Source: Vermamoeba vermiformis (taxonomy: Eukaryota). Taken from it: a stretch of DNA of 57,616 bases. Location: positions 62,001 to 119,616 of the forward strand of contig JBEWZL010000203.1 of assembly GCA_045837725.1 (NCBI GenBank), written 5' to 3'. Made by a program: the position numbers and the translations under genes. This document shows positions 3,655 to 57,616 of this stretch, one piece after another. Position 1 is the stretch's first letter; each line of letters opens with the position of its first letter. Under the pieces are notes generated by a model. The model worked only from the letters and a program-made list of their open reading frames with translations. It had not been told where the DNA came from and made no database searches.

Positions 3655-4091
3655 TTGCCGGTATTAAGTGGTGTTCGTATCTTCAATGATTAACAAAATA
3701 AAACTTGTTAGACATAAAAAAAAGTCATGTGGTGGAAATTGCGGAATTGAATTCTCGTTGGTCCTCTCCTTCAATAACACGTAATTCTAGCGTACCGTGC
3801 CTTAAATATTGATATCATCGTGGGAATTCGAGAGAATTGATCGATACCGCTGGTGGTACATGTTTTTTAGATTTCTTATGTATTTAGATCGCGACAATGG
3901 CTCCTCCAGTACAAGACGGCCAAAAATGGAATTCCAAAAATTGGCTCGCGAATAATTACTCGGGACTTAGTGTGGGCTATTTTCGTTTTTTCAATTCCGG
4001 TGTGATTTCGCCGCACAATTTTTAGCCGTGATTTTTTTTAGGTTATTCTTACGATTACTCTTCAATCGAAACAACTCACCTCAATTTAATC

Positions 4092-6115
4092 ATGGCCGAA
4101 TCAGTCCTTGGAAGTGGCAGCCGCACTATCAACATCACCATTGAAAGCGCCAAAAATCTTCGCGCTGCCGATCTCAACGGTAAATTACTACTTTGATTGA
4201 TTTTAAGTTGCTTATTATAAACGCCTTATTGACAAATGCAATCTATATAGGCAAGTCTGATCCCTACGTCGTTTACGACTGGGCTGAGAGACCCAGAACT
4301 AAGAGAACTGCCAAAACTCACGTTATTGACAAGAACTTGGTGAGTACTTGCACACATAGTTAACTCTTAGTGACTTAGAACAATGATCGGTTTTTCGGAG
4401 TGATTTAAAATTTGCTGTTGGAAAACAAATCTGAACTTTTTATTTGTGGCTAAAATTCCTTATTTATTGTTGCTACTTCTCCCATTAACGTAATTGATTT
4501 TAGAACCCTGTTTGGCACCACCATGGTCATTTGTAAGTCTCTTTTAATTCAGATTTCGCTCGCGTGCCGCTAAAAGCGAATTTAGGTACTACTCTTCCCC
4601 CAAGACCACCAACGTCATTGAATTCGACGTTTGGGACAAGGATGTTATCGGCAAGCATGATTTCTGTAAGTTTACCACAAACCAAAAACTCAATCTTCGA
4701 GGAGTTCAATCCAACTGAAATCTTTACTTTAGTGGGTTACGCCTTGATCGACATTGGTAAGGCCCTTGAGAAGAGCAAGGAGCCCACCCAAAAGTTCGAG
4801 CTCGAACTTCGCCCTCGTCCTGAGACTAAGAAGAAAACCGCTGAGAAGATCAAGGGTACTTTGATCGTTAGCTTGAAGTTCCCCGAGTCTGTAAGTACTG
4901 CAAATAGCGACCGTAATTTAATAGTGGACCATGTGGCTAACTTTCAATTTTTAGCTCTTGGTTGACGAGAAGGAACTTGAACAACTCGGAAAGGTCTCCA
5001 AGTGTAAGTTTAAGACCGATTTAATTTACTAAAAATTCGCTAATTTTATCGCATAGTCGGTAACGATTTGTTGGCTGAAATCATCGTCAACTACAAGAAG
5101 GTTGCCGGATCTGGTGGTGTTTCTGGCAAGCAACAAATCATGTCCTTGGCTCGTAATGCTAAGGTTATCGATTTATTGGTGCGTATTGAAAACTTGATAA
5201 TTAGGGAACCAGTTAAGAAAAGTGTAATTAACTAGAAATCTTCCTTCAGATCGAGCTTAGCGGCAATGCTGAAGCCAAGAACATTGACGCCAGATTGAAG
5301 GACAAGGTCTTCTCTGATCCCGCTATGGAGGAGTTGTTCTACAACCAAATTTTGAACATGTTTGACATCAACAGAGACGGCAACATTACCCTCGAAGAGT
5401 TCGTTCAAGGTTTGTCCACCTTGACTCACGGCACTCGAGACGAGAAGGCTGCTCGTAAGTAACCTGTTATTACTATCGGCTCTAATGGCAGAAGGCTAAT
5501 AACGCTCCTTTTACCCGTTAGTCCACTTCGCTGTTGCTGATGAGAACGGTGACGGTGAGTTGACCCTCGATGAAGTCATCAAGTTGCAAAAGGGTGTCTT
5601 CCAAGCTGCCAAGATCGGCTTCAAGGTCGGATTCACGTAAGTCCTCGCATGAACACTATACAAGTCGAGACACATACCAACCTTGTATTAGTGAGGGTGG
5701 CAAGGAATTGATCAAGCCTTACGGTCCTTTGAGTCAATCCGAGTTCAACGAGTTGCTCAACATGCTCCTCACCATCTTCGACCTGAGCGAGATTGCTGAG
5801 TTCGCCGCTCAACAAATCTTCGTAAGTACCAGTCGTATAAACACCTGCGCTCGATCCAGTTCTAACCTCACTCGATAGTCCTCTCAAGATAAGGACAAGA
5901 ACGGAAAGATCTCCAAGGAAGAGTACATCGCCTGGTACTGCAATGACGCTGAACGCACTCGCATTCAAGGTAAGTTAGAAGATGCAGCTTGTGTGATCAC
6001 GTCTGACTTGAATTTCCTTTCAGAGCTCATCACCGCCAAGGCCAAGCCCATCATTGAGAAGAAGGCCCTTGCTGTCGGTACTCAAGTGCAAAACTTCTTG
6101 CTCAAGCATTTGTAA
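4092..6115 (+). CDS. C2-domain plus EF-hand calcium-binding protein
   Basis: C2 motifs AKNLRAADLNGKSDPYV, NLNPVW and FDVWDKDVIGKHDF. EF-hand loops DINRDGNITLEE, DENGDGELTLDE and DKDKNGKISKEE. Confidence 0.9.
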
Positions 6116-42876: not shown

Positions 42877-44974
42877 ATGTCTTATCAATATCAACCCGTT
42901 GGGGCAGCAAATCCTCAAGTTCCTCAGCCGGTCTTGTACGCACCCGGTCCTACTTCTGCAGCTCCTGCTGCTCAGCCTCAGTATGCTTATGGAACAGTAG
43001 ACGTACCTATTTCTGGTCCTGTGATTCAACAACGATTTGAGCCTGTTTCATCTTATCGCGATCCTGCTTTTATTGTTTTATTTGTCCTGCATTTGATTGG
43101 TTTGGGTAAGAATTAATATAGCAAGAATAATTATTCTTATATCTATCTAACTCGAATAGTAATTATTTGAGAACCTTAATTTAATTTCGATTTTTCGCAG
43201 TGAAACAAATCATTAGATCCGTATTAAATAATAATGTAGTCGTGCGCTTAAAGCGTGCAATCATAGTTATTAATAATATTAATATTACCAGCTTTGAAGG
43301 TTATTTATTGCAATTACTCATATTGACACAATACTTTCTTATCTATAGTCTAAAATTGCATGCATTAACGAGGATATTGTAGGCGTTATTTTTGCCTTAA
43401 GTTTAACCCGCCCTTATCTCGATCCCAACCAAAGATTAATTTCCGATCTTGACGACAACGAATTATGGCCTGTGATCAAAACTATCGCTGTCTTGGTCGG
43501 TTCTGGCATTGGCATGAGCGTTATTTGGCTCAATTTGATGAATGCTTTCCCTTACTCGATGATTTACGTTGGTCTTGTCGGTAAGAATCGCGTCACGATC
43601 TAGACGCCCTGTAGTTTCTTAATTAACATTGCTGTGAATTAGGCAACCTTGTATTGTTTACTCTCGCTGGCGTCTATTCATTCATGTACAGTACGTAGCT
43701 ATACTCACTTATTGATGATTGTTCAACCACTCACATCCGCGCTTCAGACAACATTTGGGGTGGCATTATTTGCCTCATCTTCGTGCTCTGGTGGGTTTTC
43801 TTCTGGATCTCAGTTCGTGCACGCATTCCTTTCGCAGCTGAAGTTCTTCGCACCGTTACCACGGTCGCTAAGATGTACCCTGGCACGCAGTTCACCGCGT
43901 ACATCTCCTTGCTCGTTCTCGTAAGTATCCAAGCTTCTCATGATAGTACAGCTATTAACTAGTGATTAGATTGTATGGCAAGCCTTCTGGTCTTACACTG
44001 CGATGAAGAGTCAATTCGTGTTCGAGAAGAACGTGTACTCGGGCTTGATTGTTTTCTTCTTGTTCTCGTTCTACTGGGTTGCTCAAGGTACCTACTAATT
44101 GTTTCGTAATACGTCCTCTATTCGTTGGCTCACAATGCTTGTCTGTAGTCATTAAGAACACCGTGCACGTCACTGTTTCTGGTTTGTTCGCCACGTGGTA
44201 CTTCATGAGCGGTACTGTTGGAGTTCCTCCTCACCCCACTGCTGGTTCATTCAAGCGGTATGTGTTCTACATTTAGAATAATTGGTTCGTGGTTTAATAA
44301 CAAAGTTGTGCAGTGCCATCACCACATCGTTTGGTTCAATCTGCTTGGGTAGTATGATTGTGGCTGCTATCCAAACTCTTCGTGCTCTCGTTCGATCCCT
44401 TCGTGGTCGAAACAATCTCCTTGCTGCCATCGCTGACTGCATTCTTGGTTGCATTGACGGTCTTGTTCAATATTTTAACGTAAGTTGTAACGTGTTCGTG
44501 TCAATACCTGACTAATCGATGCTCGCGAAGCACTATGCTTTTATCCAAGTCGCCATCTACGGCAAGACTTTCTGCGCTGCTGCCAAGTCCACTTGGAGCT
44601 TGATTCAAGACGCCGGCATTGAAGCCATTATCAACGACAACTTGATTGGTGGTGTACTCACTTCGGGTTGCTTCATTGGTGCTATTGCTACTGGTATTAT
44701 TGGTGCTGTTGTTGGTGGTATTTTTGTTGGTGGAGAAAGCGGTTGGATCCTTGGTGTCTCTCTTGGTGTTATTGTAAGTTTCACTGTTTGTAAGTTAGTA
44801 ATGGTACTAACTACTTCACTCCAGATTGGATTTGTAATGTTGATCTTGGCTATGCAAGTCATTGATAGTGGTGTTTCTACTATTTTTGTGTGCTTTGCTG
44901 AGGACCGTGAAGCTTTGCGTCGCAACCAACCTGAGTTGTATGAGCGCCTTAGAGTCACTTATAACTTGTATTAA
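42877..44974 (+). CDS. Choline transporter-like (CTL/SLC44, PNS1-like) membrane protein
   Basis: Multiple TM segments; TTSFGSICLGS, YFNHYAFIQVAIYGK.FC.AAK.TW.L and STIFVCFAED. Confidence 0.92.
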
Positions 44975-45010
44975 ATTGCCTTGATGTTTATAGTAAAGTT
45001 ATCATTATTA

Positions 45011-46250
45011 TCATTTGTCTTCAATCCTTGGTAGCTTTGAATGGTAAATTGGTAAATGAGCATGATTAACTTGGTTCTTGTTGTGATTCTGCACATTTGT
45101 ACTTTCTGCACCATCACTGTCATTGACTTTAATGGCTGAGAGCTTGGCTGCAAGGTCACAATTAGTGTTGCATTGGGTCAACTTTGGCACTTGATTGCTT
45201 TGATTTCTCAGGTTGATTCTATGAAGGGTGAGCTCTTGATGGCGAACCCAGCTGCACACCTTTGCTACACCAACCAAAGGAGTTTGTGCTGGGTCACTGA
45301 AGATTTTTTTTTGAAGGGCACCCAATGGAAATTTTAAGGGGAGATTAGCAGAGCTACTGTATATGGTGAAGTGCAGTGCTGTCTATTGTGGATGGGCACA
45401 TCAAGGCAGTATGCTTAAAAATTGCACAGATTTGTCAACTCAATCAAAAATTGGTTTGTCCTTAAATACACATTAGCCATCATTTGTTGGGTGTGAAGAG
45501 GCTTGCAAATTTGCTTTACCCATTGTTGTTGTGCCATTGATTAATAAATTTTGTGGTTACTACATTGTGATTAAATTGCAAAATTTGGCAGCTCCCTTAA
45601 CCTCCCAGCCATATTTTGGCTTGTAAATTATTTTTGAACTTAGACAATAAACAAAGAGATGCTCAAGCCCAACTTTGTGCATTCTCTAAAGTGCAGTCCT
45701 CAAGCTTCTTTATGCTTGTTCACTCCCCTCAGGTGCTTCAATCTGATCTCCAATCCTCTCTCCATCATAGTTGTTGTCCATTGAATTAGAAACAAATATG
45801 AGTGAGCAAAAAACAAATCTTGGTGATTTTTGGTAGATGACATTTTCTTAAACGTTCTTTTTATACATATATTGCACTTTAAGACTATACCTAACATTTT
45901 CTTTGTTTACACATGTAAAAACATTCCACAACCATTTTCTCAATCCAACCAAGTAAATGCTGGCATTACCCTTGGTGGTAACAATGTGACAGCATTTGGT
46001 AAGGCTTTTTGAGTAACTCACCATTTGTTCTCGCTCCTTATCTCGGTTCTCTGTGGTAAAGTTGATGAAATTACATGTCTTGCTCTTTACAAGTAATAAC
46101 AAGGTATATTTATTTAAAAAACAAGCCTTATCTCTGAGACAAAATAAAACTGCACCCAAATCAAGCAAATTACCATTGCTCAGTCACCTCCATTTTTTCA
46201 GGAGCCAGCTGCTCTACTTGAGCATTATATAGCCTTTTAGGGCTTAGGGG
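45011..46250 (-). pseudogene. CpG-depleted degraded gene-like fragment of unknown family
   Basis: Minus-strand splice-like sites and short ORFs (for example 45011-45325) that do not join into a clean frame. Confidence 0.3.
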
Positions 46251-46324
46251 TCTTAGGGCAAATAAAGAAGAAAACATATCCTTAAAATTTTGCTTTATTT
46301 TTGCAGCTACAACCCAGCTGCTAG

Positions 46325-46457
46325 GCATGGCAATAGGTTACAGAGGCCCAGAGCGTGACCAACAGGTCACAAGGACTGAGTGCGTGACCAACAGGTCACA
46401 AGGACTGAGTGCGTGACCAGCAGGTCACAGAGGGCCGAGAGCGTGACCAGCAGGTCA
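46325..46457. repeat. 29-30 bp tandem repeat, 4 copies plus 1 degenerate, each with the palindrome GTGACC-N4-GGTCA(C)
   Basis: GCGTGACC begins at 46353, 46382, 46411 and 46441. Confidence 0.95.
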
Positions 46458-46471
46458 TTTAATACTGACAT

Positions 46472-46513
46472 ATTCATATATGTAAGTGGGCTTGCCCATA
46501 TAGGGCTAGCCCT
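46472..46513 (+). repeat. Left copy of a 42-bp imperfect direct repeat ending in the palindrome AGGGCTAGCCCT
   Basis: 33/42 identical, ungapped, to 50841-50882. Confidence 0.9.
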
Positions 46514-46775
46514 GACACCCCCTCAAAAAAATAAAGAATATTCGACCCCAATCATTTTTTACTTAAGCAAAATTTTACTTTGGAAAATTATCCGCAGGAA
46601 AAATAAGAAGTCTCACCCTGGGTGACTCTCAAAAAAAACTAAGTCCTGCAGGTCGTCTCCACGTGGAGACGATCTCATTTAATATGACCTAAATGACTGA
46701 TGTTAGGCATTAGGGATACAATTCCTATCACTAATAAACATTGATACTATATTAAATACGGGAGGGTCCATTACT

Positions 46776-47470
46776 GATCCTGAGCGAGACTCGCTAAGGA
46801 TGGGAAAAAGAAAAAAAGAAGGGGGGTTCAGGGGGCGGAGCCCCCTGATAAGTCATTCGTTCAACATTTTTTCATCCCGAGCGAGACTTGCTAAGGATGA
46901 ACCTTAACTCTTCTTGGTATTCATGTAGAATAATGCGAGACATCCCGAGCGAGACTCGTCTGGGATAGAAATTAATTAACCCTATAACCTGACGAACAAA
47001 TTGTTAGTTCCATCCCTGGCGAGACTCGCTCGGGATAGAATCCAATAACTTAAGGTGCATTATAATATAATTTTCAACCATTCAATCCTTAAAACCCAGC
47101 TGCTCCTCTCATCCCAAGCGAGACTCGCTCGGGATGGAAATTGAAACGTACGGGGTGCGAAAACTGTAATTTTACATCAGAATATGAAATTGCCTCCCAA
47201 AATTAGCAAGGGAGGAAAATCTATAAAATTTCCGTTCGGTTTTTTTTTCATTTTACTTTCACTTACCACACACACCACCACAACTCAACACCGTAACTTT
47301 GTTTTTTTTTATAACAAAAATGAGCAATAATTCCAAAGGTACCCCCTCTGGTCGCCAAACCCGAAGCTCCTCGACGACTACAGCAAGGAGCCCCGGGATA
47401 AGCTCACGGTAAGTAAAGTTTTATTGAAATTTATTTCCGAAGTCATCCCGAGCGAGACTCGCCTGGGATG
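46776..47470. repeat. Six interspaced 27-bp palindromes (consensus CATCCCGAGCGAG-A-CTCGCTCGGGATG) with unique spacers
   Basis: Copies at 46776, 46873, 46941, 47011, 47110 and 47444; spacers of 70, 41, 43, 72 and 307 bp. Confidence 0.95.
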
Positions 47471-48779
47471 GATTAAACAATCTCTATTTTTGAAATTGAA
47501 TTATGTTTACCATAGATTTTTTTTAAAGAATTCATCCTGTATACAATGGGATCTTCGGCGCTGTCCGAGGCCGCTAGGCCGAGGGCAGCGCGTCTCAAAA
47601 TTTGCCCAAATACACTTCAGAGGAGGCTAATTATGCCCAAATTATCAAAAACAATGAGAAAGTTGAGGTAAGTCCGAAATAATTTTGCGAAAATTTGGGT
47701 GCCGATGACAACAACTGATGAGAGGGCTGATGACAATGCTGATGACAGGCTTTGGTAGAAAAAGATGATCAGAATAATAAAATAATAGCTTTAATACATG
47801 TAAATATGCTGTTACAAGCTTAAAAATTGATTTTGGAAAGGATTCGGCAAAGTGCGAAAAAAATTAAAATATTCGAATTGCGCAATTGATGCACTGCTTG
47901 TAAAAAAGGTTCAAAATATGAACAAAGAGAATGAAAATGACTGAAAAAGGTGACAAATTTAATAAAATAGCACATCTGCAAATTTGCAGATTTGGTTGCA
48001 GAAGGTGCAATTTAGCTGGTTTATTTGATACCAGTTAGCAGGCAGGCTGTAAGACTGCCTGCAATCAGAGGGAAATGGTATAATTGCATTGATACAATTG
48101 TATTTAAAGTGTTTGTGGAGGCTGTAATAGTTTAGAGGCAGGGATGAAGGCCCTGCCTCCCCTCAAGAAGTGCAAGCAACAGGCACTGACTGGCTCTGCA
48201 AATATTTGGCAAAAATTCAATTGAATAAGATCAAGGCAGGACGTAGTACTGCCTTCAAACAAGGGAAACAGGTGGTAGAACTGAAATAAATGAAGTTTGC
48301 AGAGAGTTGGTACTCTTTTTTAGAAACCTGTTTTGCAAGCAATGGAAATGTATGGGCAACCCTGGTGCGGACCTTCAGAATATGCTCTAATAGGTAGTAG
48401 GTGGTGGCTACTAATTATTTCAGTTGGTATTTCAAGTTAGCAAGCGTGTTACCCATACTTCACCAATGCTGCCAATGTTAGGACTCAAGTTGTTTGATAA
48501 ACAGCCTCCAAGCAGTATTTTTTTTGGCAAACTGAAGTTAAAGTAGATTATTAGACATGTAGTAGCCTCACTATAATCATTAGATATCTTAAATCATAGG
48601 TACATATTCAAAACTTGCAATTCATGGAGTTTTTTCACTGGATCTGCTAAAATTTTGATGAAACATGCTATATATGATGTCCCTATAGTATATACTATTA
48701 GTATAGGATGTAAATATAATGGCCAAGCTCAAATGATACAAGAAGGATGCTAGGTGGTGCTTGTGTAGGCCACTGGAGC

Positions 48780-49025
48780 TGAAATGCAATCGATTGCAAT
48801 CGAATGCAATCAAATGAAATCGAATGAAATTTTGCATTGAGCAAGGCTGAACAGCTGTGAGTTTGGGCACTTTGGATTCCAGGCACCTTGTTTTACCTGT
48901 CTGGGTACCTAGAATACCTTGGGCACATGCTGGGCACCTAGGATTCCATAAGGAGAGGGGTACCCTGTTGGGCACCTAGGATTCCATGACTGGCTACCTA
49001 CTATTTTGGACACCTAGGATTCTGA
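48780..49025. repeat. 10-bp GAATGCAATC-like microarray followed by degenerate GGGCACCTAGGATTCC repeats
   Basis: About 5 copies of each, seen at 48781-48830 and 48863-49023. Confidence 0.85.
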
Positions 49026-49419
49026 GGATCTTGAATTCCAATAGCTGACAGAGTGGTTGGAGAGGGTACCACTCTCCTTAGGACTTAGGTGAAAAAAATA
49101 AATAAATAATTGCATACAGTGGGTTTTGAACCTGCTCCAGGTAAAAAGCATTTTAAACTGCCATATTCAAAAGCTTGCAATTGATGCAGCTACCTTAGTA
49201 GTTAACAGAATTGATGGCGGTTTGCTTTGTTAGGCTCCTAATATCATGTATTTTCATTACCAATCAAAAAAACTGGAGTTGTAGTTGAAAAGTTTTAATT
49301 CATGAAAAACTAGCTGTTACAAATCACAAAACAATTTTTTTTGTCTAAGTCATTTTGTTGTTTTTTTAAAAACACAGCACCACAAGGGAACCCTTTTTAA
49401 ATTTTAAATTGACACTATA

Positions 49420-50948
49420 ATGCAAAATACTTTCAAGGCCTTTGATAAGGATCAAATGACCAGAGAGTTTACTCACTGGCACTCTTTAAATCTTAGCTGC
49501 AAGGAAGTGGACTGCCCTCTATGCTACAAAGAGCTACAGTTCAAGTCAGTGCTGCCTCATATGAAGAACAACTGCTGCTCTGGTATTCTAAGGTACTCTC
49601 CAGCAACTAGGTACACTATCATTGAATTGTTCTCTGCTACAAATCCCAGGAATAGACCTAAGGTTCATAGCCATAGACCTACTGCTGAGGAGGAGTTAGG
49701 AGGGGAGATAACTAATGTTTTCTCATTCAAATTTGAGGGCACTAAGCTGCTCTACAAAGTAGAAGTCAGGTTCAAAGAGGTCTTTTGGATGGAGAATGCT
49801 CTGCTCAAGAAGTCAACAGAAGGAAGAAAATGGATTCAAAGAGTCAACAGGTGGAGAAAGAGAGGAGAAATGAAGGAGTCTAAAGAACAGATTGAAGCAG
49901 CAGAAGTAATTAGAACAGACCCAATGAACATGAGAAGAATTCCAAAGCCAATGGCTCAACAGATTGATGAAGAGATTGAAGAATACCACATTCAACAAGC
50001 TCTTGAGCAACCAGTTGAAGAAGAGAGAGTGAATAAGAAGAAAAAGAAGAAGAACCAAGTGATAAACTGGGCACTGATCAAATCAAAACTGATCAAGGCT
50101 AAGTACTGGGCTGATCTCATAAAAGAGATTGACTCAGAGTCAAATTATAATAATTCAAGGCTATTGTCATCTACTTTAGTCTCAATAATAAGTTTCTTGA
50201 TGAATGACTTGAAGGCAAAGTCATTTACTAAATTGACAGACCAATACCCAACTCCTGCAAAGTTCTTTCAATCTCTTGATATTAATAAGCTGTTCTTTTT
50301 AACTTTAGTCAAAAGAAGAACAAGAAAGGGAAAGAAGATGGCATCAACAGTTTGCTCAAACATTAGCAGTGTCCTTAAACTACTTAAAATGGTTAAACTA
50401 AATGAAATTGGTTACATTAGGTTAAAACAGTTCAAAGCAGTTAAGAAGTTCTACCTTAATCAAAGGAAGAAAGCAAAAAAGGCAGCCAATGACTTGAAGA
50501 AATACTCAATGAGAATGTCAGTGATGATGGCTGAAGGCAAACTTTGTCCAGAAGAGAGCTTTGCAGCTATATCAGAATTCTCAAAGGAAACAATGCAAGA
50601 GATCGTCAAGTCAAAAGTTCACTTCAGAAAGAATACCATGGTCACAAAAACAAGTGAGTTAATTTTGAATATAAGTAATCAACTAGAACAAAATATCTAA
50701 CTTAACCACTGCTTCAATTAGAGCCACTAAAGCTTCAGAAATGTGAGCAATATCAGCTTTGTTTAATGTGGTCTGTTGGTCTTTCAATTGGCATGCCAAG
50801 AACTAGCTTCTTTCCCAAGATGGTTCTTAATGACACTTTGATTCATATATACTACAGGGCTTGGCCGAACAGGGCTAGCCCTAAAAACTACTCCAAAAGT
50901 AATAAAAACTATTCAAAAAGTGGCATAACAAGGGACACCAAGCACTAA
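49420..50948 (+). CDS. Zn-finger + chromo-like + putative truncated tyrosine recombinase protein
   Basis: Exons 49420-50653 and 50722-50948 splice in frame. It contains CPLC...H...C, a chromo-like segment EITNVFSFKFEGTKLLYKVE...FWMENALL, a helical basic region, and YQLCLMW...GMPRTS resembling YR box I. No HxxR or catalytic Tyr region is seen. Confidence 0.55.
50841..50882 (+). repeat. Right copy of the 42-bp direct repeat, inside the 3' end of the ORF
   Basis: ATTCATATATACTACAGGGCTTGGCCGAACAGGGCTAGCCCT. Confidence 0.9.
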
Positions 50949-51125
50949 CGGAGTTGCCAATTGCTAATGAGGGTCGCCGATCACTTATGAGGGTCGCCGA
51001 TCGCTAATGAGGGTCGCCGATCGCTAACGAGGGTCGCCGATCGCTAACGAGGGTCGCCGATCGCTAACGAGGGTCGCCGATCGCTAACGAGGGTCGCCGA
51101 TCGCTAACGAGGGTTGCCGATTGCT
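50945..51125. repeat. 20-bp minisatellite CTAACGAGGGTCGCCGATCG, 8 copies plus 1 degenerate
   Basis: GGGTYGCCGA recurs every 20 bp from 50971 to 51111. Confidence 0.97.
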
Positions 51126-51269
51126 CACCAAGTGCTAACAAGAGTCACTAATGGGTGTGAACATGATAAATAGTTTAAATCACTTTATTAATTGAATGTT
51201 ACAATTTTACAAACCTGAAAATAAAGAGTTAGAATAAAATAAGTTGAAAAAATAAAGTAATATATAAGA

Positions 51270-51865
51270 TTGGGAGATGATGTAAAAAAATCTCATTTGT
51301 TAATGCAAGGTTGCCTCCAGTGGCAGATGATCTACTAAAACTTTAAGTTGTTGGTTGTCTCCACTGTGGAGATGGAGACGATCTACAAAAAAAAAACTAA
51401 GTCCCAGGAGGTTGTCTCCACTGCGGAGACGATCTACTAAAAAAACAAAGTTGTTGGAGGTCGTCTCCACGTGGAGACGATCTGCTAAAAAACAAAGTCC
51501 TAGGAAGTTGTCTCCACGGAGACGATGCCAGAAAAAAACCAAGTCCTAGGAGGTCGTCTCCACCGTGGAGACGATGTAAAAAAAATCTAAGTACAAACTT
51601 TGTGACCGCTCTGGTCACGAACTAAAAAATTAAAGTCGTGCAAGATTGTCTCCAGTGGGAGACGATCTACTAAAACACTAAGTTGTAGGAGGTTGTCTCC
51701 ACCGTGGAGACGATCTACAAAAAACACTAAGTCCTAGAGGTCGTCTCCACCGCGGAGACGATCTACTAAAAAAACAAAGTCGTAGGAGGTCGTCTCCACG
51801 TGGAGACGATGTCTGAAAAAAACAAAGTCCAACAGTCGTCTCCTTGAGGACGAGTCAGCAAAAAC
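51270..51865. repeat. ~50-bp satellite with palindrome TCGTCTCC-(ACGT)-GGAGACGA and an A-tract, about 11 copies
   Basis: Directly visible. A higher-order duplication of about 335 bp (51305 vs 51640) is present, with a solo copy at 46652-46675. Confidence 0.95.
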
Positions 51866-51874
51866 TAAACTAAC

Positions 51875-52650
51875 TTACCCTTCAGTTCGCCGTAGTGGTT
51901 GAAGCCAGCTGTAGTGGGCAGTAACGTGCCATGGGTTTTAATGGCATGACAGATGCTGCGGATCAAAGGAACTGGCTGAACAAATGGATTAGCCACGAGT
52001 GTAATACATATTAAAAAAACAATTGCTTACCAGAAATTAATTGTGCGTGAGAATTACCAAAGCTTAGGAGAAGTCTTGGTCGATCTGCTGCAGGACTTGG
52101 GAGATTCGTTAGTTGGACGCGAAAAAATTAATTAAAACTGGCTTACCTAGCTGCTGGAGGCTTGGTCACAAGGGGCAGTAATACACGAAAATGCAATAAC
52201 GTGCACTGTGTAGATGATGAGAGCGTCAGTACCCTACAAATGGTGAGCGTTAGATGCCGCGCAGTTGATCATTAATTTAAAATTTTATTCGCTTACCTAA
52301 CGCTCCTTGCCTCACCTCCGCCACTCTTATGTTACAACCATATTAATTGGATCTTCTTGAAGTGCCAGTCCCAACTGAAGCCTAAAAACGACAAGGACAT
52401 CTGGCGTAGCTATTTAAATCTAGAAAAAATATTAAAAAATTCCGAACTGGTCAATTATTAAATTATTTAATAATAAAGCTTACCACTCCAGTGCACCCCC
52501 ACTTACAGAATAACTTGGGTTGGTGGCATCCGTGGACACGATTGCGGCAGCGCAACTAGCAGCAACATGGGTGTAGGGTAGAACGATCTACAACTTTTAA
52601 AAAATAATACCAATAATTTACGACAGGTGTGGTTGTGGTCGTGTTTATGT
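51875..52650 (-). ncRNA. Putative spliced transcript without a continuous ORF, divergent from the downstream array
   Basis: GTAAG donors on the minus strand near 52483, 52296, 52146, 52031 and 51878 with AT-rich introns. The exon joins tested hit stop codons. Confidence 0.35.
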
Positions 52651-52828
52651 CGAGAGAAACGAGACTTTTGAAATTAAATGAAGAAATTTACGTTGTCTGC
52701 CGTGCCAGGTTTTTTCCGAGCACGGGACGCAATTTTAGCAGCCACGTGCTGTCGACGAATGTCGGTTTTCACGGTTTGACTAAATCAGGAAGTGACCGTT
52801 ACAAATACCCCAGCGAGATTCGCACACT

Positions 52829-54905
52829 ATGACAGATCGACCACAAGTTTGATTTATTTATTTACAGCATATAATAGCGCGTCACGGTATCAGAACCGTT
52901 CAGCGAGAGTTATTTGGATGACAAGTTGATGCGATATTCAGCTTCGCATCAGATCGACCACAATGGTCGAGATATTATCATTATTATTATTATTATCAAT
53001 AATAAACACGCGCCAACCGACAACAAGCATCATTCCAGCGCAAGACAAAGCGCGAGCTCAAGCTGCGTGAATCTCGGTGCAGAGACCGAGATAAATCAAG
53101 GTAATATTATTTTACTACCCTCCCACCTCATATATATTATTACTATAATGTAAATTTATTATTGCAATTTTCAAATATGTTCAGGATCGAGTTGTAATTC
53201 GATTCACTAGATCTCGACCACCAACGGTCGTTTAATATTGTCTACAACGTTGTTGCTCATGCGCAGTCTTTCTTTTGGTTGTTTGAACGCGTCAGTATCA
53301 ATGGTAACTTGTCGGCACTGATCGCAGCCATTATTCGTCGAAGAACAAGCACCGCGAACACGTAAGTACTATTTCTATTTATTTTCATATTTACGTTGTT
53401 AATAATATTATATTTAGTAACCTGTGCGGATTCTTCAAGATCCGAATGCGAAGTTGCGTGAGATCGGTATTGGTTTGGAAACTGTTGTCCGCGTCGTAAG
53501 TTAATACAGAGATAGATATTGTGTATGATTACTAATTGATAATATTGTTATAGCTTTAACCCCTCATGATAGGGACTGACGCGATGGTTAAGATCACGGT
53601 GCGCGACGATCCAGTCATTTTATGTAACGATGGATCGAACGGTCGATCAACGGACTGCCATCATCGCTTGCTTCTCATTTATGAAAGAGTAAGTACGTGA
53701 CTAATATCGATATAGAAAGTATTAAAGCTTTATTAATTAGAAGTGATCGAGCCCAAGTAACGCGATTGAGAAATGCGTTGCTCGATCCGTTCCAATGTTA
53801 TTGGTCGCAGTCTCTAACGCATCAAAGGTACGTAAATCAAAAAAAAAGACATCAAGTATAATTAAATTAACGTTTGTCTTAGTAGAAATGGTAACGTCGT
53901 TGAACTCGACGTGGATGTCGCGACTCACGTTCTGCTTGGCTGTTTATTTCGACCGCAAAGTACGCAAACGCATTTATAATGATATTTACTAACACTTATT
54001 AAATCAGGAAGGGTAAAAACAACCCGCGAGGAAAAGTAACGAGCAGTACGAATATCCGCGAACCAGCAGCGGATTCAACTTTTGATTAAGCGCATCGATC
54101 ACGCTAATGGTAAGTTCAATGCGTTCAAAATACCTAATGTAAACGAATACTAATGCTAATACTTCATTTAAGACTTACACGGGTGAGAGCACGGGATCGC
54201 TCACAGATCGAGATTTATTTAAACTTCGCGTGACTGCTGTGACTCCTAGACGCGGTAAGGAAGGATATAGTCTACTGTGCATAGTGCTAACACCTTAATA
54301 ATCTAGAGTTGCATACGGCGCTGGTTAGGCTTTGTAGACGCGGATCGAGACTCTTTGACCTCGATCCATAAGAAGTTGACAGAGCGCTGCGATTGCATTA
54401 AAAGTAAGTAAAACGCGTTTCATACCAATATTATAACTTACTGATATTCATTTTATTTTAGGTAAGAGTGCGCATTAGCTATTTTTACGGATGCTGTGCG
54501 ATCTGACACGAGTAATTCTCCTAATACATGACGAACAATAGACCCGTAAGTAATATCTGAAGACTATACTATATAGAGACTAACATGATATTGCAACAGA
54601 TTTGCGAAAGCAGCTGAAATGGCGAAGAAATGCGATCCAACTTGAGCGGATTCGAATCCGAGAAAATACACTAGCCGTAAGTTAATTTATTGGTTCATAA
54701 TGATAAATACATTTATTAACATGTTTATATAACCAGAGTCGATCAATGAAGAGTCAATTTGCTCACTGATCCTCGAGACTTCCAATTGTTGAGAACGCAC
54801 CTAGATCTTGCTAGAAATTTTAAATTGTAAAAAGTAATAAAAACTACTTATACATTATAAAATTGATAAAAGTGCTCCCTCGGGAGGACCTAACCACAAA
54901 GATCT
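52829..54905 (+). ncRNA. Putative multi-exon non-coding unit 1
   Basis: 11 canonical donors (53101, 53362, 53496, 53689, 53828, 53960, 54110, 54255, 54404, 54546, 54677) with AG acceptors. Exons at 53554 and 54008 have stops in all frames. AATAAA at ~54836. Confidence 0.5.
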
Positions 54906-54929
54906 GTTCTGTTATTTTTGTTTAAAAGT

Positions 54930-56580
54930 TAATCTGATACGGATCGAGCTTAGTGCTCGTAATTTAAACTGATTTTATATTGTATATCGTTTTATTAATT
55001 ATATTACAGTATATTAACGCTTAATTTTCAATACAGAAACTCGTCGCAATTTTCTAAAGCGATCGAAAGTTCCAATCCCTTTCGATGCGCGAGATCCCGA
55101 CCACCAATGGTCGTTTCACGGTATACTGGCTCTTTCCGTTCGTGTCCCATTGCTGGGACCATCACCACTGCTCGCCGATGGGGTTGGTAACTTGATGGCG
55201 AGTTCGGATGCGTTGGACGCATCAGAATAATTGGTAAGGTCAATTGTAATAATAATTACAATCAATAAGACGCAGGGAATGCGTCAATTTAAAATTTGAA
55301 ATTACACGTATAATTTAAAATAACCAATTATATGGATCGAGCTTCGTGCTCGTGTAAAATTGAAATTGTTATTCATTTTATTATTAAAACAATATGTTAA
55401 TCCTTCTTTTATAGGTAATTGGAACGTCAGAACTAATGCGCGAGCTCTAAACGTGAAGTCAATCGCTCATGGCCAGTAGCAAATCAAGCGTAAGTAGATT
55501 AAATCTTGTATTTTATTGTTATTTAATATTCTAACATGGTTTATTTAGGCTTTGGAAATTCACGATGATGGATCTTGAACGCGATCTTCTCGCGTTAACA
55601 GATCAATTATATCGACAGTAATTGGCCGGTAAGTATTCCCAGCACTAGATACCGAGCAACACTAACACTTTGTTTAATTAGATATGGGCAGAGCAAGCAC
55701 TCAGTAAAATTAACGAGATCGAGATCCGTCACATCTCGATCCTTGAAAATTTATATGGCGTGCAGCGATTACTCTGAAGGTGAATAATACCCTTATTTAT
55801 TTATATTTCAACTCATTGATACTAATTAGATGTCTCAGGAAATGACACAGAGCTGGGGCCAGAGATCGGGTCCGACATCCCGATCTCTCAGAAGTTCAGT
55901 GACGCATCGATCGCGTCAAAAGTAAGTAGAATGCATTAAAATTTAATATCAAAGCCAATATTAAGATTATTCTTTATTTAGGATTTATTCGGATAGGATC
56001 GTCGGATCGCTCGCAGCACTCGATCTGCTGTTGAATTAATCTGCGCAGCAATTGCACCGAAAGTAAGTCCAAAGCGCACACATCTATCAAATATAATATT
56101 AATATCTTTTATTATAGTAGATAGCACGAGACTGACTTAGCAGAAGAGGTGCACGGGATCTGACGTGCTTAATTTTCACGGTAGACGAAGATTCAATACC
56201 CGTAAGTAATATATGGCGATTAAATTATATCAACTAATAGAATGTGACAGTAGATTGGCTAAAATAGCTGAAGTGGCAAAGAAATGCGATCCGCAACTTC
56301 ACGGATTTGCAACTGGAAACTTAGCTCGTGGTAAGTGATTTTACATTTAATTTTAGATTCATAATTACTAATTCATTAATTTTATTAGCGAATGGATCCC
56401 AGAGCTTGGCTTTTGTTCTGGTACTGCACTGATCCTGGATCCACGAGACTCGGCTATTTTTCGATCACGTCTGGATCTTGAGCAAAAGATTTAAGTATTG
56501 TAAACTGTAATAGGACTTTAAATAAAAGAGATTACTTTTTAATGCATAATAAAGTTGATCACTTCACAAAGATCTGGATG
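54930..56580 (+). ncRNA. Putative multi-exon non-coding unit 2, paralog of unit 1
   Basis: Donors at 55234, 55490, 55629, 55780, 55922, 56063, 56202 and 56331. The last exons align with unit 1. AATAAA at ~56521. Confidence 0.5.
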
Positions 56581-56596
56581 CCGTTATTTTTACACT

Positions 56597-57616
56597 TTGA
56601 CAGATCGACCACAAGGGTCAATTTATTAATTTGTTATTGATTATTAACATATGATAGTTATGCGCCACGGTTGCAGCGGCCGTTCAGCGCGAGTTATTTT
56701 GATTTGAACTTGGATTCGCATTAGATCGACCACAAGGGTCGAATTATTATAGTATTTAGTTCATTGTGTATATTATACACGCGCCCAACGATATTCAGCG
56801 TCGTTGCAGCGCGAGGCTTCAGCGTGGATCTTTCGGTCGCTAAATCTCCGACCGGTAAGTTAAAGTTTTGATGGCGGTGTAGTTAATAACTTACTTCCAC
56901 CATTTATAAGAATATAATAACATTAAATAGAGGTCAATTTTTTTTGCTATTTTTGGAATCAATTCGGATCCAGCTTAGTGCTCGAAAATTAATAATAAAA
57001 CTATTTTCTAACGATTATATGGACCCTATTAATATATGCTAATCGTTTTTTTTTATTATAGAACACGACACGAAAAAATTACCGCGATCGAAAGTTTTAT
57101 TTTCTTTCGATTTGCTGGATCTCGACCACCAATGGTCGTTAATTATTATTCAATGCTGTTTCGTTCGTCTCCTGCATTAGTTAGTATCCTCACTGCTCGC
57201 TCATGGGCTCGCTAACTCGTTGCCGCGATCGGATGCGTGGGACGCGTCCAAATAATAAGTAAGTAATTTTTTTAATATACCATATATTAGTAAGACGCAA
57301 TCAATGCGTCGATTTAATATTTAAAATAATTGTTAAAGTTTTAAAAATTTAAAATCACGGATCGAGCTTCGTGCTCGTATTAAATTTAAATTATTGTTAT
57401 TTTATTATTCATACAATATTTTTAATGCGTATTTAAAGTTTATTTGAGCGTCAGTGTAAAGACGCTAGTTCTAGATCGAGCGCGAGGGAGTTCGCTCGAT
57501 GACCGATAGTGAATCAAGTGTAAGTAGCTTAGATCTTTTATTTTATTATTATTTAATTTTCTAATGCATCTTATTTAGGTTTTACAAATTCACAGACGGA
57601 TCTCGAACGCGATCTT
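56597..57616 (+). ncRNA. Putative multi-exon non-coding unit 3, truncated by the window end
   Basis: The start matches 52829-53050 and the rest matches 54940-55590. Donors at 56855, 57259 and 57520. Confidence 0.5.

Follow-up and report, generated by a model that had tools for sequence, protein, structure and literature searches.

Tandem, intron-dense units without coding capacity in Vermamoeba vermiformis: a candidate family of spliced noncoding RNA genes

Host genes of small nucleolar RNAs (snoRNAs) of the GAS5/UHG type are spliced and polyadenylated, have no open reading frame (ORF) and poorly conserved exons, and are genes in which splicing itself matters. Gene fragments captured by Helitron or Pack-type elements can also give spliced chimeric transcripts without an ORF. 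The A-repeats of Xist and the stem-loop boxes of roX are arrays of short GC-rich stem-loops with AT/U-rich spacers, suggesting multivalent protein binding. In the multi-exonic long intergenic noncoding RNAs (lincRNAs) of animals, GC-rich exons and splice-related motifs are under selection, according to the portions of two reports considered here (PMC4338330; PMC4245815). We analyzed a 57,616-nucleotide (nt) stretch of Vermamoeba vermiformis DNA (assembly GCA_045837725.1, contig JBEWZL010000203.1, positions 62,001 to 119,616 of the forward strand; referred to as the window), in which three diverged tandem units, A, B, and C, lie on the plus strand at 52800-57616 and have 11, 8, and 3 introns, respectively, up to the window end. 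A preliminary description made from the letters of this stretch had reported three such units with GC-richer exons, short AT-rich introns, splice signals, and a terminal AATAAA, all of which are present. We tentatively propose, giving the idea slightly less than an even chance, that the units belong to a lineage-specific, multi-copy family of obligately spliced long noncoding RNA (lncRNA) genes in a microbial eukaryote.

Like the Xist A-repeats and the roX boxes, the units are arrays of short GC-rich stem-loops with AT/U-rich spacers, but there is no sequence relation, the spacers of the units are introns that would be removed, and the units form a many-locus family. Helitron and Pack-type elements share with them a multi-copy status, a gene-like exon-intron structure, and the lack of a long ORF, whereas the units have no recognizable parent gene, are composed of modules that are internal duplicates, carry splice signals conserved above background, and showed no element termini on unsystematic inspection. 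Unlike those of snoRNA host genes, their introns are mostly 48 to 63 nt long, which is too short for a snoRNA; a 19-nt hairpin is all that the long introns contain, and no Rfam snoRNA was matched. As far as the cited portions of the two lincRNA reports go (PMC4338330; PMC4245815), the units are similar to animal lincRNAs in having no ORF, exons that are GC-richer than introns, and constraint that falls mainly on splice-related sequence and not on the body of the exons. They differ in that they are multi-copy and tandem, occur in a microbial eukaryote with so far putative expression, consist of duplicated exon-plus-intron modules with 8 to 11 minimal introns per ~1.6- to 2-kb gene, contain ~5 times the expected number of GATC sites in their exons together with a CpG excess, and carry invariant palindromic 5' boxes. 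No published description of the family was found in a limited literature search that was far from exhaustive.

The units have the anatomy of genes, and their parts are as follows.

~52824-54860, plus strand: unit A, with two upstream palindromic boxes, 12 exons, 11 introns, and AATAAA at 54836.
53101-53184, 53362-53417, 53496-53553, 53689-53740, 53828-53882, and 53960-54007, plus strand: introns 1 to 6 of unit A.
54110-54172, 54255-54306, 54404-54461, 54546-54599, and 54677-54736, plus strand: introns 7 to 11 of unit A.
~54900-56560, plus strand: unit B, with 9 exons, 8 introns, and AATAAA at 56521 and 56548.
55234-55414, 55490-55548, 55629-55681, and 55780-55838, plus strand: introns 1 to 4 of unit B.
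55922-55981, 56063-56117, 56202-56250, and 56331-56388, plus strand: introns 5 to 8 of unit B.
56592-57616, plus strand: unit C, cut by the window end, with two boxes and exon 1 at ~56779-56854.
56855-57061, 57259-57454, and 57520-57578, plus strand: introns of unit C.

The 5' limit of family homology lies at ~52777-52824. Unit B begins with intron-1-like sequence and is missing both boxes and exon 1, which are present in units A and C; as a unit without these parts, it may depend on read-through from unit A.

Metagenome contigs were scanned with the most conserved motif of the family, which led to one true relative, a 2,964-nt contig (L001) that contains two further tandem units, D and E, directly 3' of the stop codon of an ordinary gene. 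Another candidate (L002) proved to be a chance match in a GC-rich contig, and scans of genome and viral contig collections with the motif gave no match. Units D and E are 67 to 68% identical to unit B over 830 to 922 nt, and their introns occupy the same positions. Within the window, the paralogous junctions that had been quoted as keeping their intron positions are real (54572 versus 56226 and 54542 versus 56198). Between units D and E (1717-1800 of L001), there is an extra, truncated exon-2 core (CGACCACCAATGGTCG) with a GT donor behind it, and a short intron then connects it to exon 2 of unit E, an arrangement that looks like a partial exon-2 duplication. Exon 6 of unit D measures 151 nt, has an AT-rich center, and may hide a dead intron.

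All 22 introns of units A to C begin with GT and end with AG on the plus strand, in agreement with the number given previously (about 22), and 16 of the donors read exactly GTAAGT. Eighteen introns are 48 to 63 nt long, the remaining four measure 84, 181, 196, and 207 nt, and most show a YTRAY branch-like motif shortly upstream of a YAG acceptor. The GC content is 0.470 in exons versus 0.243 in introns. A strict short-intron pattern yielded 10 plus-strand candidates in 52001-57616 versus 0 to 3 per 2 kb elsewhere in the window. When units A to E are taken together, GT is found at 34 of 34 donors and GTAAGT at 22 of them. The units thus combine canonical host-type spliceosomal signals with a 3' end signal (AATAAA), as a multi-exonic lncRNA gene does. 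In a neighboring coding gene for a choline-transporter-like protein (42877-44971, plus strand; PF04515), the gaps between exon matches are 50 to 61 nt long, which indicates that the minimal introns of the units are of the host's kind.

Conservation was compared by class after each homologous short intron and exon had been aligned separately with anchors; this procedure replaced a global MAFFT alignment, which was uninformative by class (identity of 0.62 for exons and 0.62 for short introns). The lengths of homologous short introns are nearly constant across copies (59/59/59/60, 53/53/53, and 59/58/58 nt). Identity reached 167/191 (0.874) in the splice signals (i.e., donor hexamer, branch pentamer, and acceptor triplet) versus 381/612 (0.623) in the remainder of the introns, and exon identity in the anchored alignments was 1540/2308 (0.667). 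A Fisher test of signals against intron remainder gave an odds ratio of 4.2 and a P value of 7e-12, which overstates the case because aligned intron pairs share ancestry and are not independent, and some circularity comes from the fact that introns were recognized by their GT and AG. This definition does not, however, dictate the bases beyond GT in the donor, the branch motif, or the nearly invariable intron lengths. The neutral decay of splice signals that is expected of a family of coding-gene pseudogenes was, within this caveat of circularity, not observed. The retention of the signals in copies that are ~67% identical would be more in keeping with selection that acts on splicing or the RNA than with unconstrained decay.

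Several lines of evidence support the view that the units are noncoding. The preliminary description had reported exons closed in all frames and no long ORF, and 13 of the 25 exons in the window are indeed closed in all three frames. The spliced products have stops in every frame (19 to 21 per frame in unit A, 12 to 15 in B, 4 to 5 in C, 8 to 14 in D, and 4 to 10 in E), and the lack of an ORF extends to 5 of the 5 units examined. The longest stop-free run, 103 codons in unit A, is not common to the other units, and the minus strand of the units has nothing above 96 codons. Of the potential counterevidence named earlier, a codon-periodic substitution pattern was not encountered in the conserved short frame of exon 2, nor was an intact coding paralog in the exon-2 peptide search or in the rest of the window. 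In unit exons, two positions 3 nt apart carry identical bases with a probability of 0.241, which is not above the values at lags 2 and 4, whereas long host ORFs give 0.272, a clear peak at lag 3; the indels that separate the copies of exon 2 (1, 2, and 5 nt) are frame-breaking. A short ORF starting at a conserved ATG in exon 2 was considered and rejected, as it shows no third-position excess, lacks its ATG in unit A, and is frameshifted in unit D.

Homology searches gave the same picture. When the one exon-2 translation that is open throughout was used as a phmmer query, 1.84 billion proteins yielded two repeat-translation artifacts and no relative; P0001 (3,265 amino acids [aa]), a translated long tandem DNA repeat that matched the exon-2 peptide 28 times via an HQWSL-like word, is an artifact of this kind. 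In tblastn and blastn comparisons of the units with the rest of the window, nothing fell below an E value of 0.01 among 154 queries. No coding parent or residual coding signal was thus found with the exon-2 peptide, within the window, or in the periodicity analysis. A protein-coding family that uses a nonstandard genetic code or recoding could be imagined from the gene-like exon-intron build and from exon 2 of unit E, which is open in all three frames, but this explanation is close to refuted. Of the 15 frames of the five spliced units, 14 contain TAA, TAG, and TGA, and the remaining one contains two of the three; reassigning one or two stop codons opened none of them. In addition, exon indels are not multiples of three, periodicity is absent, and the standard code works normally for the neighboring choline-transporter-like gene, whose product is 86% identical to a database protein.

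The exons and introns are organized into modules, each comprising an exon and the next intron, of 125 to 187 bp (most 133 to 157 bp; median, ~137 bp), a typical one consisting of a GC- and CpG-rich exon of ~80 nt and a minimal intron of ~55 nt. Homology between modules was detected in 13 of 120 pairs at z > 4 (e.g., A9-B5, A9-B4, B4-B5, and A7-B5), with the shared donor contributing part of each score. The mutual homology of the modules indicates that the genes grew by duplicating exon-plus-intron modules. The best-kept region is the 5' part, which consists of the boxes, exon 1, a long intron, an exon 2 of ~190 nt, and a second long intron, and which contains the following elements.

52835-52853, plus strand, with further copies starting at 52952, 56603, and 56724: upstream palindromic box GATCGACCACAA, with TCGACC-N5-GGTCGA arms.
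55093-55112, plus strand, also at 53210-53229 and 57118-57137: exon-2 core GATCNCGACCACCAAYGGTC, forming the hairpin CGACCA-CCAA-TGGTCG.
54937-54967, 55330-55360, 56962-56992, and 57355-57385, plus strand: long-intron hairpin GGATCGAGC-TTMGT-GCTCG.

The palindromic box, a putative promoter element, occurs once in L001, where its spacing is the same as in the window, and the second box of each pair lies ~56 nt upstream of the ACGCGCC start of exon 1 (53008 and 56779). Exon 1 forms a hairpin. A spliced-leader- or small nuclear RNA-like nature of exon 1 with its donor was rejected, the Sm-like run of C not being kept in unit A or D as judged by eye. The exon-2 core is the most conserved block of the family, and its invariant GATCNCGACCACCAAYGGTCGTT occurs 3 times in the window versus 0.02 expected. 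The 19-nt long-intron hairpin is almost invariant in the introns that flank exon 2, its copies being 393 nt apart in units B and C.

The exons are also distinguished by their short palindromes. GATC occurs 49 times in 2,466 nt of exons (~5 times the expected number) versus 4 times in 1,676 nt of introns, and all 4 intronic sites fall in the conserved intron hairpins. The ratio of observed to expected GATC is 3.0 to 4.4 over the units versus 0.55 to 1.86 elsewhere in the window, and that of CpG is 1.5 to 1.8 over the units. The most over-represented tetramers in the units are the palindromes CGCG, GATC, GCGC, and TCGA. GATC sites have a symmetric context, T being uncommon at -1 and A at +4, and no longer consensus surrounds them. 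Some of the sites lie in hairpin stems, as in the following mid-exon examples.

55717-55741 (9 bp), 54342-54367 (8 bp), and 55861-55888 (10 bp), plus strand: mid-exon hairpins with GATC in the stem.
53071-53092, 57087-57111, and 57475-57500, plus strand: further mid-exon hairpins with GATC in the stem.

The 7.6 kb of units contain 66 stems of 7 bp or more, versus 38.5 +/- 4.5 in shuffled sequences (maximum of 52 in 100 shuffles); the units in the window hold 42 of them versus 16 to 26 in five other 4.8-kb stretches. The mean folding z score of the exons is -0.77 (P = 0.001).

On the basis of these features, the units could be RNA polymerase II-type, multi-exon genes with a predicted transcription start, splicing in vivo, and probable polyadenylation, each having a conserved 5' part followed by a variable run of modules that would have grown by tandem duplication. 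Selection would preserve splice signals and, in the exons, the short stem-loops that carry GATC, but no reading frame, the conserved 5' part and the stem-loop exons being the candidate working parts. Dense and efficient splicing would then produce a mature RNA of ~1 kb with its short stem-loops arrayed along it, and this RNA, as a scaffold or decoy, might engage in multivalent binding of a sequence-specific nucleic acid-binding factor, a role suggested by the anatomy alone. We propose that a need for efficient processing of the RNA may account for the retention of the dense consensus introns. If transcribed and spliced, the units would represent a natural case of selection on splice signals and stem-loops without a reading frame, and a single genome would offer many paralogs for comparison. 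It could then be tested in a small, minimal-intron genome why noncoding RNAs keep introns, how lncRNA genes become longer when exon-plus-intron modules are duplicated, and what a GATC- and CpG-rich hairpin array binds. If silent, they would be a warning that amplified relics can resemble well-kept genes.

A bolder version, which we consider unlikely, is that splicing itself is the object of selection, i.e., that the units are "intron-dense" noncoding RNAs made of nucleosome-length modules, each with a GATC-hairpin exon and a minimal consensus intron. The job of such an RNA would require many splicing events, for example to load exon-junction or spliceosome-associated complexes or, as another option, to mark the RNA as "self" against splicing-coupled silencing, with multivalent GAUC stem-loops exposed. 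If real, this class of RNA would have no prior description in microbial eukaryotes.

The family is multi-copy. The summed contig word depth in the source DNA run at >=95% identity, a rough guide rather than a true copy number, was ~207 over a flanking single-copy gene, ~4,000 to 4,300 over 54928-55313, and ~5,900 over 56665-56857; the 5' parts thus look ~20- to 28-fold multi-copy and the unit bodies ~1.5- to 8-fold. None of the listed data sets that contain the stretch is recorded as RNA. Three RNA runs with the same species label placed 4, 2, and 4 reads on the units, all of them partial and in 2 to 4 of 30 bins. The reads over exon 2 carry a C>G change at 55097, and those of one run (X6; 3 reads) match unit E of L001 after 55115, which means that they derive from paralogs; some family members are represented in RNA at a very low level. 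The gene that adjoins unit A on the minus strand (~51870-52571) had zero depth in the same three runs, which are therefore without a positive control and say nothing about the expression of units A, B, and C. The earlier proposal that splicing or the RNA is under selection holds up as far as the noncoding nature of the units and the retention of signals above the intron background are concerned, and transcription and splicing were not shown in the RNA runs. The minus-strand gene itself has short exons, introns of ~60 nt (by eye), an ATG near 52571, and signal-peptide-like first residues; it is oriented away from unit A, whose first box lies ~250 bp from that ATG.

Besides the limits of the splice-signal comparison given above, several results weigh against functional, spliced lncRNA genes. 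The three RNA runs contained no read of >=95% identity properly placed on unit A, B, or C and no junction read, and multi-copy dispersal is also compatible with a mobile or passively amplified element. Individual splice sites are weak: the acceptor of intron 7 of unit A is AAG, that of intron 2 of unit C is AAG at the position aligned with units B, D, and E, with a CAG 17 nt downstream, and the donor of intron 4 of unit B is a degraded-looking GTGAAT. Support for the hairpins is modest, with a folding z score below -2 in 7 of 36 exons, and where stems persist across copies in exons 2, 4, and 5, this is mostly because their bases do not vary, compensatory changes being few. Mismatch types, compared as a test of RNA versus DNA stems, showed no strand asymmetry (10 G:T versus 10 A:C), nor did folding of the plus versus the minus strand (P = 0.29), so that the palindromes could act in DNA.

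The last of these results would agree with a DNA-level element in which GATC and CGCG palindromes, ~137 bp apart and separated by AT-rich linkers, recruit a dimeric factor that binds or modifies DNA or, alternatively, position nucleosomes, the splice-like signals being secondary. The predominance of palindromic tetramers, the symmetric context of GATC, and a module period near nucleosome length point the same way. We regard such an element as very doubtful, since it fails to explain why one-stranded GTAAGT, branch-like, and YAG motifs are the best-kept parts of the spacers or why AATAAA stands at the unit ends, and since the hairpin loops are mostly not palindromic. It is likewise improbable, if a little less so, that the transcript or its stem-loops feed an RNA interference-type pathway, perhaps coupled to the spliceosome, as a small-RNA precursor or substrate of genome defense. 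Conserved stem-loops in exons and long introns, the repeated and tandem nature of the family, and the very low level of steady-state RNA would suit this role. Its stems of 5 to 10 bp are, however, too short for Dicer-type substrates, and the strong consensus introns argue for efficient rather than stalled splicing. Rfam 15 covariance models, among them those for snoRNAs, small nuclear RNAs, spliced-leader RNAs, and ribozymes, gave no match at gathering thresholds or at an E value of <=5, with only chance-level matches at E values above 1, and a tRNA scan of the units found none.

The multi-copy status, the dispersal over two loci, and the near absence of RNA reads would fit another explanation, namely, that the units are nonfunctional relics of a gene or gene fragments that were multiplied either through segmental duplications or as cargo of a DNA transposon or a Helitron-like element and lost their frame long ago. 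The introns would then look intact because the copies are related, have been homogenized by gene conversion, or are only partly decayed. The weak acceptors and donor, the possible dead intron in unit D, and the position of the tandem arrays in intergenic DNA adjoining a CpG-poor, mobile element-like block are in line with such an origin. Against it, copies that are only ~67% identical have lost none of their homologous introns, whose lengths differ by at most 1 nt and whose signals are 87% identical, versus 62% for the remainder of the intron. No coding parent was detected, the exons show no residual codon periodicity, and the CpG excess of the units is the opposite of the depletion in the neighboring block. 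The units showed no ORF and, in an inspection in which termini were not systematically searched, no terminal inverted repeats or transposase. Overall, we judge a relic unlikely, although it retains an appreciable share of the probability, and we continue to favor, tentatively, a family of spliced lncRNA genes.

The window also contains ordinary eukaryotic genes, which encode AAA_5, F-box, subtilase with P-domain, tRNA-ligase anticodon domain, PLD, WD40, START, and RhoGEF proteins. The named relatives of the choline-transporter-like protein, at 38 to 50% identity, come from Amoebozoa and early-diverging fungi. By blastn, the units have no similarity to the rest of the window, the mobile element-like block included. 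Across the whole window, CATG is scarce (observed/expected, 0.19 to 1.06, mostly ~0.5), and GATC is mildly over-represented outside the units as well (1.1 to 1.9). The CpG-poor block spans 45000-51850 and probably corresponds to the silenced mobile element mentioned in the preliminary description; its CpG ratios are 0.64 (44001-48000) and 0.44 (48001-52000) versus 1.0 to 1.3 elsewhere. It contains a lysine- and glutamate-rich ORF of 426 aa (49420-50700) without a Pfam match, after which come two repeats, one of 20 bp (50945-51125, ~9 copies) and one of 48 bp (51373-51830, ~9.6 copies), each carrying the palindrome GTCTCCAC-GTGGAGAC and a GATC.

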